Shown: positions 23,553-29,094, counted from the stretch's first letter. The stretch: DNA of 38,045 nucleotides from a virus (IMGVR_UViG_2778261204_000006:1-38045); one strand, 5' to 3'. The notes: a model not told the origin generated them from the sequence alone. Made by a program: numbers and translations.

Positions 23553-23803
23553 TGAAAGAATACCGCTATTCCGGCCCGGCCAGCGGCGTCACGCTGTCGG
23601 ACGGAACCGAAATCCTGCTCTGGCCGGGGAAGACTGTTTCCCTGCCGGAGGAGCATGACTACGTGAAGGTACTGGTGGCGCTGAAGCATCTGACGCCGGT
23701 ATCTGAAGAAATTAAACCCGCCGGCACACCGGCTGTGCAGTCACCAAAGCGCAGGAACGGCGGTGACAGCGAGGTGAAAACGGAGGACGCCCATGTCAGC
23801 TAA
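23552..23803 (+). CDS. hypothetical protein
   Basis: 83 aa; overlaps the sheath start. Confidence 0.45.
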   Translation: MKEYRYSGPASGVTLSDGTEILLWPGKTVSLPEEHDYVKVLVALKHLTPVSEEIKPAGTPAVQSPKRRNGGDSEVKTEDAHVS

Positions 23804-25220
23804 CTATCTGCATGGTCCGGAAACCATTGAAGTGGAAAACGGTGCCCGCCCGGTTAAAACGGTGAAATCTGCCGTTATTGGCCTGATTGGTACCGCACCA
23901 ATGGGGGATGTCAATACGCTGGTACAGTGCCTGTCTGAGAAAGACGCTGCGGCATTTGGCAGCCAGTTCACCGGCTTTACCATTCCACAGGCGCTGGATG
24001 CGATTTATGACCATGGTGCAGGCACCGTTCTGGTCATTAACGTACTCGATCCGTCTGTGCATAAAACCGCTGTGGTCAGTGAGAATGTGTCGTTCGACAA
24101 GGCGACAGGCAGAGCCCGGCTGGCTAATCCGGTGGTCGCGCAGCTGGTACTGAAACCGGACAGCGACGGTCAGCCTTATGTTGAAGGTCAGGACTACTCG
24201 CTTGATGCACAGACCGGGGTGATTACTAACCTGGGTAAAAGCATTGCTGCAGATGCAACGGTGAAGGCCAGCTATAACTATGCTGATCCGACCAAAGTCA
24301 CCCCGGCTGATATCATCGGTACCGTTAACGCTGCAGGCAACCGTACCGGCATGAAGCTGCTTAACGACAGTTTTAACCTGTTTGGCTACTTCGCCAAAAT
24401 CCTGATTGCTCCGGTATTCTGCACCCAGAACAGCGTCTCGGTTGAGCTTATCGCCATGGCTGAGAAACTGGGAGCAGTAACCTATATTGATGCGCCGGTT
24501 GGTACCACTTTTGCGCAGGCTCTGGCGGGACGTGGCCCGGAAGGCACCATTAACTTTAATACCAGCTCTGACCGTGTCCGCCTGTGCTACCCGCATGTGA
24601 AGGTATATGACCCGGTGACGAACACGGAGCGTCTGGAGCCACTGAGCCAGCGTGCGGCGGGCCTGCGTGCCAGAGTCGACCTGGACAAAGGGTACTGGTG
24701 GTCATCCTCCAATCAGGAAATTCTGGGGATCACCGGCGTGGAGCGCCAGCTGTCGGCAATGATTGACGATCCGCAGAGCGAGGTTAACCTGCTTAACGAA
24801 CAGGGGATCACCACGGTATTCAGCAGTTACGGTAGCGGCCTTCGTCTGTGGGGTAACCGGACGGCAGCATGGCCAACGGTCACCCATATGCGTAACTTTG
24901 AGAACGTTCGCCGCACCGGTGATGTGATCAATGAGTCCATTCGTTACTTCAGCCAGCAGTACATCGACATGCCGATTACTCAGGCGCTGATTGATGCACT
25001 GACGGAGTCAGTCAACGCTTACGGTCGCAAGATGATTGGCGATGGTGCACTGCTGGGCTTCACTTGCTGGTTTGATCCGGCCCGTAATGAAGAGACGGAG
25101 CTTGCCGCCGGTCACCTGTTACTGAGCTACAAATACACGCCACCGCCACCGCTGGAGCGGCTGACGTTTGAGACTGAGATCACCTCGGAATATCTGTTAA
25201 CCCTGAAGGGGACCAGTTGA
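23793..25220 (+). CDS. contractile tail sheath protein
   Basis: 475 aa; GGAGGA RBS; followed by tube gene. Confidence 0.8.
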   Translation: MSANYLHGPETIEVENGARPVKTVKSAVIGLIGTAPMGDVNTLVQCLSEKDAAAFGSQFTGFTIPQALDAIYDHGAGTVLVINVLDPSVHKTAVVSENVSFDKATGRARLANPVVAQLVLKPDSDGQPYVEGQDYSLDAQTGVITNLGKSIAADATVKASYNYADPTKVTPADIIGTVNAAGNRTGMKLLNDSFNLFGYFAKILIAPVFCTQNSVSVELIAMAEKLGAVTYIDAPVGTTFAQALAGRGPEGTINFNTSSDRVRLCYPHVKVYDPVTNTERLEPLSQRAAGLRARVDLDKGYWWSSSNQEILGITGVERQLSAMIDDPQSEVNLLNEQGITTVFSSYGSGLRLWGNRTAAWPTVTHMRNFENVRRTGDVINESIRYFSQQYIDMPITQALIDALTESVNAYGRKMIGDGALLGFTCWFDPARNEETELAAGHLLLSYKYTPPPPLERLTFETEITSEYLLTLKGTS

Positions 25221-25743: not shown

Positions 25744-26025
25744 GTGAGTGTTGAACTGACTGATAAAGGAGGTCGATGTGCAGCACTGGGCATGTCGAAC
25801 GGTACGTGGTTTACCCTTCTCGATATTCCGGGGGTGGAAACCCTTTTTAATACCCGTAAAACCAATGACCCGATTGACTGCACACGTTCAAAGGCCCGCA
25901 AACTGGCCGATTTGATTGAAGCATGGGAGCCGCCCGACCACTGGTTCTCCGGCACCGGCAAATCTGAGGGAAAGGCGCTTCTCATCGCTTTCCTGCGTAA
26001 CTGCAAGGGGTTTCGCACTTGCTGA
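25744..26025 (+). CDS. hypothetical protein (start uncertain)
   Basis: GTG start; in-frame ATG at 25792; followed by terminator hairpin. Confidence 0.3.
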   Translation: MSVELTDKGGRCAALGMSNGTWFTLLDIPGVETLFNTRKTNDPIDCTRSKARKLADLIEAWEPPDHWFSGTGKSEGKALLIAFLRNCKGFRTC

Positions 26026-26031
26026 TATCAC

Positions 26032-26055
26032 AGGGGCTCCGGCCCCTTTCTTCTT
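26032..26055 (+). terminator. rho-independent terminator
   Basis: AGGGGC-TCCG-GCCCCT hairpin followed by TTCTTCTT. Confidence 0.45.
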
Positions 26056-26123: not shown

Positions 26124-26459
26124 ATGTCACAGACCCAGCCAGATACTTTTACGCTATCTTATCCTTTCACCACTGCTGCAGGTACCAGAATTGAACAGAT
26201 TGAACTGAAACGCCTGACGGTCAAAGACCTGAAGCAGGTGCGCAAAATCAGCAAAAACCCGGCAGACTGGGACGAACCGCTGATTGCCCGCAGTACCGGC
26301 CTTCTCCCGGAAGATCTTGACAATATGGATCTGGCTGATTACCTGCAGTTGCAGAAACGATTTCAGCTCATCACTGGGATGGGTGAGAGCAACGAAGGCG
26401 CTGACGCAGGCACAGGGGCTGCTGGCAAGGTGGTTCAGGTTTCAGCCGGGGGAGATTGA
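26124..26459 (+). CDS. tail assembly chaperone (P2 E / lambda G-like)
   Basis: 111 aa acidic protein immediately upstream of tape measure; AGGAG RBS; overlapped by an alternate-frame ORF 26284..26541. Confidence 0.55.
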   Translation: MSQTQPDTFTLSYPFTTAAGTRIEQIELKRLTVKDLKQVRKISKNPADWDEPLIARSTGLLPEDLDNMDLADYLQLQKRFQLITGMGESNEGADAGTGAAGKVVQVSAGGD

Positions 26460-26616
26460 TGCCCTCGATACTGACGATCTGGAGATGTGGCTGGAGCAGG
26501 CTGAAGAGCAAATCAGAAGCGAGTACGGCGACAAATCGTAGCACGGACAGCCGCCAGTGGCGGCTGTTCTGCGTTATCCCCTCACGTCTTTTCACCTTCC
26601 CCGGAGGTTAACCACT

Positions 26617-29094
26617 ATGTCGGGAAAGTTTTCAGTCGGCGTTGTTATCGGCGGGATGATTGGCAGCACATTCCGTTCTGCAATGAGCGGTACCCGCCGT
26701 GCGCTTGATTCCCTGAGCGATACCTCACGCCGCCTGCAGGAACGTCAGAACGCTTTAACCCGTGCAACAGAACGTTATGGTCAGTTGGGTTCTTCCCGGA
26801 TGCAGCGTCTCAACAGCGAGCTGCTGCGGGTAAGCCGCACCATGGAGCAAATTGAACGTCAGCAGCGCCGCCTGTCAGCAGCATCAGCGACCAGTGATGC
26901 GCTGAAAGCTAACCGCATGGCGCTGTATGGTCAGGGACTTGAAGCGTATGGCATGGCACAGACTGTTTATCATACGGTTTCCCCGGCCGTTCAGCAGTCC
27001 ATGTCTTTTCAGGATAAAATGATTGATATGTCGATCACCGCAAAATATGACAATAAAACGCGGGATGCACTTGCCGGACAGATAAAAGGCTGGGCGCTTA
27101 AATACAATCAGTATCAGGATGAGCTGCAGGAGGCGGTGGGTTCGCTCATCAGCGACAATATTGATAATGTGTCAGATATCGGTTTTCTGATGCCGGATAT
27201 TGCCCGCGCGGCAACGGCAACACGCACGTCTGCTCAGGACTGGGCAAAAGTGGCCGCAGTCTGGCAAAATTCCCTGAAAGGTGCGGCCAGCGATTTTGGT
27301 GCTGTCCAGAATATTATGGCTTATGCCGGTGACCAGGGGTCATTTGAAATCCCGGATCAGGTCAAATGGATGCAGTCCCTGGCCCCAATGATGGAGGGTG
27401 TTGCCAGCGGGAAAGAGGCTGTTGCTGAAATCGGTGCCAGTCTCCAGATAGCAAAAATCGGTGCGGGCTCCACCGATGAAGCAGCCAATAACTTTAAAAA
27501 CTTCCTTACCAAAATTTTTGCCCGTGATACTCAGAAACAGTTTGCTGATCTGGGTATTGATTTGCAGGGTTCTATTGCGAGTTATAAAGCTGCGGGGATC
27601 TCTCCGATTGAAGGGATGTTGAGTGTGATAGAACGTTACCTCAATGCCAAAAGCCCCGAAGCGCTGGCCGGCTTCAAATCCGCCATGAAAATAAAGAATG
27701 ATACGGCAAGAGATGAGGCACTTCAGGCTCTGGCGAAAAACTTTGGTCTGGGCGATATGTTCGCGGATATGCAGGTCATGGCATTTATCCGCCCGATGCT
27801 GGCAAACATGGACAGATATCGCGAGATCCGTGCCGGTGCTCTCAGGGCAGCCGATAACGATTTGCTTGCCAGTGCGTATGATCAGCGGCTGAAATCCCCC
27901 CTTGAAGCCACCAAAGCGCTGGCAGTCAACAGTCGGGATCTGGCAATTACGCTGGGCGATCAATTAGCCCCGTCTTTTATTTCTCTGACTCAGGAGCTGC
28001 TCCCACTCATTCAGGGGGCAAAACACTGGGTAGCGACTCACCCGCAATTTGTCAGTGGGGCTTTTAAGCTTATCAGTGCGCTCCTTGCGATTAAGATAGC
28101 GACTATTGGTCTCAAACTGGGGCTGAATCTCCTTATTTCCCCCTTTGTAAGTGTCTGGAAAAATGCTGTTTTACTTCGGGCCAACTGGCTTCGTCTGATG
28201 CTCGCACTGGGGGAAGGCGGTAAACTCCGCTGGCTGGTGACAGGCTTTGGTGCCGTCGCCAGAGGCGCCAGAACACTGGGGGGGGTGCTCTCAGGGGGGC
28301 TGGTTCGCGGAATTATGAGCGCCGGGCGTGCCGTTCTCTGGATTGGCCGGGCGCTGATGATGAATCCCATCGGTCTCGCTATCACCGCCGTCGCGGCAGC
28401 AGCTTACCTTATCTACCGCAACTGGGGCGCGGTCAGTAGCTGGTTTAAACAGCGCTGGGCTGACATTCAGGAAGCCTTTAACGGCGGTATCGCGGGAACT
28501 GGTAAACTGCTGGTTAACTGGTCTCCGGCAGGTCTGCTTTATAAAGCCTTTGCGGCTGCGCTGAAATATCTCGGCGTTGATTTGCCGGCGAAATTCACCG
28601 ACTTCGGTGGTCATCTTATTGACGGGCTGATAAATGGCATCAGAAACAAATGGGAGTCACTGAAAACCAGCATAACCGGAATGGGTGACAGCATCAGTGA
28701 CTGGTTCAGCGAAAAGCTGGGCATCCATTCACCGAGTCGCGTGTTTATAGGCTTTGGTGACAATATCGCGCAGGGTGCCGCCATTGGCCTGCAACGGACC
28801 ACTCCGCTTGCTGCACTGGCCGGGCAGCGCCTGGCCGCTGAAATGACACCGGATGTTCCCCGTATCCCGTCGCCGGAAATCATGGCTGCCGGATATTCAG
28901 GCCGTGGCGCAACTGCAACCGGCGGTGGAGCGTCTGGCGGTATCCAGGTCAGCTTTAATCCTCAGTTTTTCCTCAATGGTAAGGAAACCGCAGCGCCTGC
29001 CGGGCTGGCTGGTGCCCTGAATATGAGCCTGCATGAGCTGGAAAAAATGCTGGAGCGTCTGCTGGCTCAGAAACAACGTAAGGAGTACAGCTGA
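26617..29094 (+). CDS. tail tape measure protein
   Basis: About 825 aa, helical and Gly/Ala-rich with hydrophobic segments; GGAGG RBS before ATG 26617. Confidence 0.85.
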   Translation: MSGKFSVGVVIGGMIGSTFRSAMSGTRRALDSLSDTSRRLQERQNALTRATERYGQLGSSRMQRLNSELLRVSRTMEQIERQQRRLSAASATSDALKANRMALYGQGLEAYGMAQTVYHTVSPAVQQSMSFQDKMIDMSITAKYDNKTRDALAGQIKGWALKYNQYQDELQEAVGSLISDNIDNVSDIGFLMPDIARAATATRTSAQDWAKVAAVWQNSLKGAASDFGAVQNIMAYAGDQGSFEIPDQVKWMQSLAPMMEGVASGKEAVAEIGASLQIAKIGAGSTDEAANNFKNFLTKIFARDTQKQFADLGIDLQGSIASYKAAGISPIEGMLSVIERYLNAKSPEALAGFKSAMKIKNDTARDEALQALAKNFGLGDMFADMQVMAFIRPMLANMDRYREIRAGALRAADNDLLASAYDQRLKSPLEATKALAVNSRDLAITLGDQLAPSFISLTQELLPLIQGAKHWVATHPQFVSGAFKLISALLAIKIATIGLKLGLNLLISPFVSVWKNAVLLRANWLRLMLALGEGGKLRWLVTGFGAVARGARTLGGVLSGGLVRGIMSAGRAVLWIGRALMMNPIGLAITAVAAAAYLIYRNWGAVSSWFKQRWADIQEAFNGGIAGTGKLLVNWSPAGLLYKAFAAALKYLGVDLPAKFTDFGGHLIDGLINGIRNKWESLKTSITGMGDSISDWFSEKLGIHSPSRVFIGFGDNIAQGAAIGLQRTTPLAALAGQRLAAEMTPDVPRIPSPEIMAAGYSGRGATATGGGASGGIQVSFNPQFFLNGKETAAPAGLAGALNMSLHELEKMLERLLAQKQRKEYS

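Follow-up and report, generated by a model that had tools for sequence, protein, structure and literature searches.

The stretch of DNA analyzed here (IMGVR_UViG_2778261204_000006:1-38045), referred to below as the window, comprises 38,045 nucleotides (nt) of viral origin and represents a BcepMu-like (Bcepmuvirus-type) transposable prophage, with 94-95% identity to Escherichia phage PhiKM and about 85% identity to Klebsiella phage KP12 and phage Phi06_2974 B. The subject of this study is a gene of its tail module, located on the plus strand at 26124..26459, together with an open reading frame (ORF) in another frame that overlaps its 3' part (26284..26541, plus strand). The gene runs from an ATG start to a TGA stop (26457-26459) and encodes 111 amino acids (aa), residues 8-81 of which match PF10109 (Phage_TAC_7) with an E-value of 2.5e-22 (79 bits; cut-off, 25). 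This family is described as "Phage tail assembly chaperone proteins, E, or 41 or 14", and the Prokaryotic Genome Annotation Pipeline (PGAP) labels the gene "phage tail assembly protein", whose counterpart in phage PhiKM is annotated as "tail protein E". Upstream of it lies a tail tube gene resembling FII of P2 (25217..25741, plus strand; PF04985 Phage_tube, E 4.4e-55), and downstream lies the tape measure gene (26617..29094, plus strand; PF10145 PhageMin_Tail, E 9.4e-21), whose ATG at 26617 is preceded by GGAGG and agrees with the start annotated in PhiKM and by PGAP. Both the family match and the position between tube and tape measure genes bear out the proposal, made in an earlier note on the sequence alone, that a tail assembly chaperone is encoded here; the gene at 26124-26459 is a member of the P2 gpE/Mu gp41 family. 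The tape measure protein is presumed to be the client of this chaperone.

The overlapping ORF comprises 85 aa with a TTG start and is open after a TGA at 26281. Its offset from the chaperone start (26284 - 26124 = 160 = 3 x 53 + 1) places it in the +1 frame, equivalent to -2, relative to the chaperone gene. Its overlap with the chaperone gene amounts to about 176 nt at the 3' end of the latter, and it terminates 82 nt past the chaperone stop, as the earlier note had described and the ORF listing confirmed, leaving 75 nt before the ATG of the tape measure gene. By itself, such an ORF is only moderately unusual: at the 3' ends of other genes of the window, non-genic open stretches in alternate frames reach 7-47 codons, with one of 93. 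Moreover, the -1 frame is also open at this locus, for 68 codons from 26405 to 26611, ending just before the start of the tape measure gene, so the ORF map alone cannot say which frame matters; it is conservation that raises the +1 ORF above chance. The chaperone gene contains a single in-phase heptamer of the type X_XXY_YYZ, A_AAC_CCG at 26255, and this one is not within any permissive overlap, in keeping with the remark in the earlier note that a canonical slippery heptamer could not be found.

To examine conservation, homologous loci were collected from complete Escherichia coli genomes, from one genome per species (34 loci), from IMG/VR and from GenBank phages. A mixed alignment of distant chaperones proved unusable for locus searching, and scans with single proteins were used instead. 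After de-duplication, 176 loci yielded 123 unique sequences from Enterobacterales, Burkholderia (including BcepMu), Pseudomonas, Ralstonia and Crenobacter; some of the counts below cover subsets of 95 or 80-83 sequences. The +1 frame was open across the chaperone 3' end and alignable in 123/123 unique sequences, down to 32% chaperone identity, so that a lack of conservation of the alternate frame, which would have spoken against its use, was clearly not observed. In nearly all of 95 sequences it remained open for 150-240 nt downstream of the putative shift site described below, and its length was also conserved, ending at +178 nt from the TTT codon of that site in 68/95. By contrast with this, the -1 frame closed within 41 nt of the site (the codon of Phe80) in 88/95 sequences, and it showed neither conserved sequence nor any family match.

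The conserved part of the +1 frame has the core consensus ..(A/L)LLARWFRFQP(G/S)E(I/L)(D/N)xLxx(D/E)(D/E)(L/F)ExWLExAxEQIK.., which corresponds in the window to 26416..26514 on the plus strand (GLLARWFRFQPGEIDALDTDDLEMWLEQAEEQI) and has a weak match to PF06528 (Phage_P2_GpE). PF06528 was also the top match in 7/8 relatives tested, and the Lonsdalea homologue passes the gathering score at 26 bits. A comparison of the extension profile with P2 E' by hhalign gave a probability of 82.6% (E 9.7e-6), and where PGAP calls the +1 ORF it names the product "GpE family phage tail protein". Taken together, these sequence comparisons indicate that the predicted +1 peptide is probably a divergent P2 E' domain, and the likeness to P2 E/E' that had been suggested from gene arrangement appears to hold at the level of the encoded domain. 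No NCBIfam model matched either the chaperone or E', and a sequence search of the PDB with the conceptual fusion returned no match.

Patterns of substitution also place the two frames. The changes that separate the window from KP12-type sequences between about 26379 and 26447 are synonymous when read in the +1 frame and not in frame 0. In 80 enterobacterial sequences, per-position entropy showed that the variable base is the third position of frame 0 up to 26357 and the third position of the +1 frame from about 26379, and constraint on the +1 frame is already visible at the Gly-Trp codons at 26377-26382. The 5' part of the +1 ORF (26284-26360) is probably untranslated.

Two departures from the usual layout of the +1 frame were noted among the homologous loci. 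At the locus of Apirhabdus apintestini (CP138906, L032; ~1700-1912), the chaperone and E' share one frame owing to the loss of a single nucleotide 12 nt upstream of TTT. This locus may be a pseudogene or a naturally occurring fusion, or the deletion may be an error of assembly. The three genomic copies in Symbiopectobacterium sp. RP (L038-L040) have an E' ORF that extends beyond the 0-frame stop by 319 nt and, following ...EQIKRE, carries an unrelated basic C-terminus; in this symbiont the tail module appears disrupted or rearranged.

The position at which ribosomes would have to change frame is narrowed by stop codons in the relatives. In the +1 frame, stops occur as near as 9-11 nt upstream of TTT, the nearest one (in Ralstonia and Pseudomonas phages, L138/L139) ending 9 nt before it. 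In frame 0, the nearest downstream stop is found at +21 nt from the Phe80 codon in Crenobacter (L043). A shift site common to the whole family must therefore fall in 26353-26382. Within this interval there is only one invariant element, the TTT codon of Phe80 (26361-26363) followed by C, which was present in 123/123 unique sequences and is the sole UUU_Y in the chaperone gene of the window. The search of the overlap for a shift site conserved across homologues, proposed in the earlier note, revealed this candidate. The codon after TTT may be CAG, CAA, CAT, CGC, CGG, CGT or CTG, encoding Q, H, R or L; its first base never changes. Because this codon changes its amino acid and keeps its first C, the constraint points to the nucleotide rather than to the amino acid. 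The other Phe codons of the chaperone genes vary freely (TTT 85, TTC 79), and in the Burkholderia group, which is rich in guanine and cytosine (G+C), TTT accounts for 17% of the Phe codons in the flanking ORFs, yet TTT is used at the site.

The codon that precedes TTT shows a similar bias. In 81/82 enterobacterial cases where it encodes Arg it is CGA, a codon that accounts for 8% of Arg codons in the flanking genes, and the equally invariant Arg30 is encoded by CGC (55), CGT (20), CGG (6) and CGA (1). The third-position entropy at the CGA and TTT codons is 0.19 and 0.10, respectively, compared with about 1 for neighbouring codons. The proposed +1 shift site is written CGA_UUU_C and occupies 26358..26364 on the plus strand (CGA at 26358-26360, UUU at 26361-26363 and C at 26364). 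Most likely the shift occurs here, which puts it 96 nt ahead of the 0-frame stop, whereas the lambda and P2 sites are close to the stop; this refines the earlier picture of the overlap.

Transfer RNA for Phe (tRNA-Phe) carries the anticodon GAA, which reads UUU through a G.U wobble and can pair with UUC one base further on through three Watson-Crick pairs. A move by -2 would put this tRNA on GAU, with which it is unable to pair, so at UUU_C the shift would be +1 rather than -2. The earlier note had left the choice as +1 or -2: its frame relation stands by arithmetic, the direction is most likely +1, and a -2 move at this site is disfavoured. In the mechanism we propose, most ribosomes would continue in frame 0 and produce the 111-aa gpE-like protein. 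In a minority, peptidyl-tRNA-Phe on UUU at 26361-26363, with CGA in the ribosomal E site, would un-pair and re-pair on UUC at 26362-26364, exchanging the G.U wobble for a G:C pair. Decoding would then resume at AGC (26365) in the +1 frame and end at TAG (26539-26541). The +1 part of the long product would span 26365..26541 on the plus strand (58 codons, SSSLGWVRATK...EYGDKS, and the stop TAG), giving a fusion of 80 + 58 = 138 aa (...LQKRF|SSSLGWVRATKALTQAQGLLARWFRFQPGEIDALDTDDLEMWLEQAEEQIRSEYGDKS) whose N-terminus is common with the 111-aa protein. On the model of lambda G/GT and P2 E/E+E', both products may coat the tape measure protein via their common N-terminal domain, and the rarer long form may recruit the tube protein, the presumed partner of the E' part; the shift frequency would set the ratio of the two products.

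Precedents exist for the individual elements of this scheme. UUU_Ynn has been described as notably liable to +1 frameshifts in bacteria in the absence of a stop codon, and UUU_Y is the apparent site of the Yersinia YopN-TyeA fusion (PMC5009743). The influenza A PA-X protein arises from a +1 shift on UCC_UUU_CGU, and work on release factor 2 (RF2) has led to the proposal that weak pairing in the E site favours +1 shifting (both summarised in PMC5009743). It is plausible, as speculation, that weak E-site pairing by CGA, decoded through an I.A wobble, aids the +1 move here. We consider it likely, on the comparative sequence evidence, that the chaperone gene makes a second, longer protein by a +1 slip at the conserved UUU-C.

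Several observations weigh against this scheme or limit its strength. CGA is replaced by GTG, TCC, GCC, CAC or ACG in 25/123 sequences and cannot therefore be essential. The codon that would stand in the A site is mostly CAG, which is neither rare nor a stop. RNAalifold, applied to 15 diverse sequences, predicted 10 pairs with no covariation and thus no conserved downstream RNA structure; the single-sequence fold at the site had a z-score of 0.04, and no Rfam family matched. No Shine-Dalgarno-like element upstream of the site was evident by eye in the alignments, no scan having been made for one. With such an A-site codon and no stimulators seen, the shift efficiency may be low. The E' segment of the window, despite having PF06528 as its top Pfam match, scored 15.7-17 bits and thus fell short of the gathering score, which is 23. 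Furthermore, the homologues are mutually related, and counts such as 123/123 overstate their independence. Finally, the conservation of TTT_C could in principle result from a Phe required in both frames, if the shift took place up to 8 nt upstream and TTT lay in a dual-coding stretch. No conserved slippery sequence was found in the few bases upstream of TTT_C, and a dual-coding Phe is the main residual doubt about the proposed site.

Other positions for a shift were also weighed. Within the interval defined by the stop codons, a +1 or other shift might occur on AAA_C (26355-26358, with the slowly decoded CGA in the A site) or on GGG_A (26376-26379). In favour of the former, CGA is rare and strikingly conserved, and the -2 site of Mu likewise has CGA as its A-site codon; the codon before CGA, however, is variable (AAA, ACC, GGC, GAC, GAT, CGT and others), most of these codons cannot re-pair at +1, and the same 25 sequences that lack CGA count against AAA_C as well. 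For GGG_A, the 0-frame codon is GGG in 76/81 Gly85 codons, a conservation that is explained by the Gly-Trp codons of the +1 frame, and several clades have GGC, GGT or AGC instead; in Ralstonia and Crenobacter a +1-frame Trp codon directly follows TTC. A shift at either position is thus improbable. Another candidate is the run of five G residues (26448..26452, plus strand) adjoining the stop (GCC GGG GGA GAU UGA, 26445-26459), on which a Mu-like -2 or a +1 shift would give ...VSAGG-EIDALD... or ...VSAG-EIDALD..., respectively, that is, ...VSAG(G)EIDALDTDDLEMWLEQAEEQIR. It resembles the verified -2 site of Mu (CGG_GGG_CGA), it lies two codons before the stop, the usual place of lambda- and P2-type sites, and tRNA-Gly could re-pair there from GGA to GGG (-2) or from GGG to GGG (+1). 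Nevertheless, the run is not conserved, being replaced by CCGAGTGAG, CCTGTGGAG and others (CCGAGTGAG and similar sequences in Brenneria, Pectobacterium, Lonsdalea and further relatives), and in 36/95 relatives frame 0 ends upstream of it, among them KP12 with a TAG. The run itself lies inside the conserved E' motif, the conserved LLARWFRFQP is encoded upstream of it and would be lost with a shift there, and substitutions are already synonymous in the +1 frame ahead of it, from 26379 to 26447. On the grounds of its non-conservation, the upstream 0-frame stops and its place in the E' motif, we ruled out the G5 run as the shift site, and we regard a shift there as very improbable.

Five database proteins of 138 aa (P0005, P0011, P0012, P0034 and P0050), mostly from Logan assemblies, pass from frame 0 into the frame of E', and the position of the junction varies among them. 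Three (P0005, P0011 and P0012) carry exactly the junction expected from a +1 shift on the G run and could be taken to favour it; each of the three has lost one G from the run, probably through G5-to-G4 sequencing errors. As the junctions are scattered and mostly located in homopolymers, the five proteins were set aside as probable sequencing errors rather than natural fusions. The +1 ORF might instead be an independent small gene with its own start, involving no frameshift and no fusion. PGAP does call a stand-alone +1 gene of 45-52 aa in some genomes, and a GTG at 26383 is available as a start in the window, but the PGAP starts differ among close relatives (GTG at window 26383 versus an ATG equivalent to 26404). 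No aligned position of the +1 frame has a start codon in more than 48/83 sequences, 10 sequences lack any +1 start codon between TTT and the E' core, and, of the candidate starts inspected, only a few had a Shine-Dalgarno-like motif match upstream. Moreover, constraint on the +1 frame begins at the G85/W codons, upstream of the candidate start codons, and in P2, a homologous system characterised by experiment, E' exists only as the E+E' fusion (GenBank AF063097 annotation; PMC3091744). Given that no start codon is conserved, independent initiation of E' was judged unlikely. Least credible of all is that the +1 frame is unexpressed, either as a frame open by chance where the overlap is rich in G+C, or with the -1 frame at 26405-26611 as the real extension. 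The -1 frame is open for 68 codons up to a point just before the tape measure start, and long alternate-frame ORFs are common in the window; the +1 frame, however, is kept in both length and sequence across phages of beta- and gammaproteobacteria, with its synonymous pattern and its homology to E'. The -1 ORF closes early in most relatives and was rejected as the extension for want of conservation and of any family match.

We then compared the proposed +1 shift at UUU_C with known systems, of which P2 E/E' is the closest in domain content. In both phages the chaperone gene lies between a tube (FII-like) gene and a tape measure (T-like) gene, and the products share the N-terminal PF10109 domain (E 1.5e-12 for P2 and 2.5e-22 for the window) and a homologous C-terminal E' motif. 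The shift site (a proposed one in the window) falls at the C-terminal end of PF10109 in both, with 17 residues between the site and the E' core in the window and 19 in P2. The P2 site, GGT TTT TTG, covers residues 83-85 and Pfam positions ~76-78, and Phe80 of the window is at position ~74; this equivalence of the two sites rests only on Pfam profile coordinates, which are good to about three codons. Direct alignment of P2 gpE to the profile of the window family failed, the sequences being too distant. P2 needs no RNA structure for its shift (PMC3091744), and no conserved structure was found for the window. The two systems differ in the shift itself: P2 uses a programmed -1 shift on T_TTT_TTG in its FETUD tail operon, whereas the extension of the window is in the +1 frame, has no such heptamer and is proposed to depend on a single-tRNA slip on UUU_C. 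They also differ in the distance from the site to the 0-frame stop, which is 96 nt in the window and about 20 nt in P2. As a consequence of this distance, the short product of the window carries a poorly conserved tail of 31 residues after the site, unlike that of P2.

Phage Mu provides the nearest parallel in frame relation. Like the window, it is a transposable myophage whose tail chaperone has an extension in the +1/-2 frame. A rare CGA adjoins the shift codon (the proposed one in the window) in both, and Mu gp41 also matches PF10109, weakly. The Mu shift is an experimentally verified -2 frameshift at CGG_GGG_CGA (PMC5009743; GenBank annotation). On the other hand, Mu gp41 belongs to PF23746 (Gp41_Mu, 9e-35), whereas the protein of the window matches only PF10109; the Mu extension is without similarity to E', and Mu slips by -2 on a G run, whereas the G5 run of the window is not conserved. 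The -2 frameshift of Mu gp41 and the conserved tail-chaperone frameshift of the lambda G/GT class were reportedly described by Xu, Hendrix and Duda in 2004 (reviewed in PMC5009743). The window shares with lambda G/GT a layout in which a single start serves two products, the coding region sits between the major tail and tape measure genes, and the long form arises by a low-frequency frameshift (the long form and the frameshift being proposed in the case of the window). The features of this class found here are the gene position, an overlapping +1 ORF that runs past the stop without a conserved start, and a shift-prone sequence in the overlap. The lambda proteins have no detectable sequence similarity to those of the window, and lambda differs in shifting by -1 on G_GGA_AAG and in having a non-contractile tail. 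In the lambda model, the common N-terminal domain binds the tape measure protein and the rarer extended form links the tube protein (PMC5009743).

With the known UUU_Y sites (the E. coli argI error site, YopN-TyeA and PA-X), the proposed site has in common the tetranucleotide, the proposed move from UUU to UUC and the independence from a stop codon. It differs from them in lying in a phage chaperone gene and in that its 5' codon is usually CGA and not UCC. The BcepMu sequence at this position, TCC TTT CGC, matches the PA-X hexamer UCC_UUU_CG. BcepMu (AY539836) carries a true homologue of the whole module: its gp41 matches the window chaperone with an E-value of 3e-17, Phe74 corresponds to Phe80, and gp42, which is encoded in the +1 frame relative to gp41, contains the E' core. 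The GenBank record of BcepMu (L005, 4603-5364) assigns these genes differently, with gp42 as the analogue of lambda G and gp43 as the slippage product. Our comparison indicates instead that the frameshift pair of BcepMu is probably gp41 and gp42, with a +1 shift at TCC_TTT_C connecting them. Separately, gp43 appears to be an ORF that is open by chance in DNA rich in G+C.

An unannotated homologous E' motif (VADVAWWFGWNVSEIEQMTLDELSTWLEQANRQIK) was also noticed in Pasteurella phage AFS-2018a (MH238466, L140; 668-1100), where it lies in the -1 frame of the chaperone; its -1 shift site is likely within CAA AAG GGA AAG, just before the stop. Since E' is in the -1 frame in P2 and the Pasteurella phage and in the +1 frame in window-type loci, the shift direction would differ within one family. 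A broader and tentative proposal, which we think more doubtful than the slip at UUU-C itself, is that the P2-type E/E' family has switched shift direction in evolution, with -1 in P2 (on a heptamer rich in U) and in the Pasteurella phage and +1 on a minimal, stimulator-free UUU_C tetranucleotide in the BcepMu-like module, where the shift would be tuned in enterobacterial phages by the nearly invariant CGA in the E site through its I.A wobble. If this is true, it would represent natural and widespread E-site-modulated +1 frameshifting in bacteria, occurring in roughly 12% of the E. coli genomes that are complete. A naturally selected UUU_C with a conserved rare 5' codon would make E-site effects on +1 shifting directly testable in E. 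coli. The case would also support the idea that tail assembly conserves the ratio of two products and not the recoding mechanism.

The +1/-2 direction is unusual for tail chaperone genes and is already known, being documented for Mu and for the haloarchaeal virus HSTV-2 (PMC5009743), and annotations in the SEA-PHAGES program include 350 forward frameshift cases (PMC10885494). In a BcepMu-like phage, the authors of the KS10 genome paper found no frameshift signal (PMC2628397). No description of this +1 chaperone family or of its site was found in the literature searched. On the sequence evidence, the chaperone of the window appears to be a widely distributed member of two known groups, the programmed frameshifts of tail chaperones and the UUU_Y +1 sites, and not a new mechanism.

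Besides 637/5426 complete E. coli genomes, many other Proteobacteria carry the prophage family. Of 40 genomes chosen as a spread sample, 4 had E' annotated, as a stand-alone gene, and 36 had no annotation of it; in the two records inspected, the start codons of these stand-alone annotations were inconsistent. A joined +1 coding sequence at TTT_C would correct thousands of records. In addition, the family would offer a well-supported training case for frameshift predictors, for which reliable forward cases are in short supply (PMC10885494).

The remaining features of the locus concern the surroundings of the chaperone gene. The tail-module order begins with the sheath gene (23793-25220), followed by the tube gene. 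Between the tube and chaperone genes lies a small ORF of 93 aa (25744-26025) with a sub-threshold match to DUF7739 (24.7 bits; cut-off, 27). All close relatives inspected have it annotated at this spot, and P2 has no gene there. Directly after this ORF, 77 nt before the chaperone start codon, there is a terminator-like hairpin at 26032-26047 on the plus strand (AGGGGCTCCGGCCCCT), followed by TTCTTCTTAA with the tail extending to 26057. This hairpin could lower the expression of the chaperone and tape measure genes relative to that of the sheath and tube genes. A further strong hairpin, ACAGCCGCC-AGT-GGCGGCTGT, is located on the plus strand at 26546-26569, between the E' stop and the start of the tape measure gene, and the 90-nt region around it has a fold z-score of -3.86. 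Its stem is kept and its loop is variable in about 10 close relatives, and the hairpin is absent from Brenneria- and Pectobacterium-type loci. The Symbiopectobacterium locus L011 has a different hairpin with a T-rich tail at the corresponding place.

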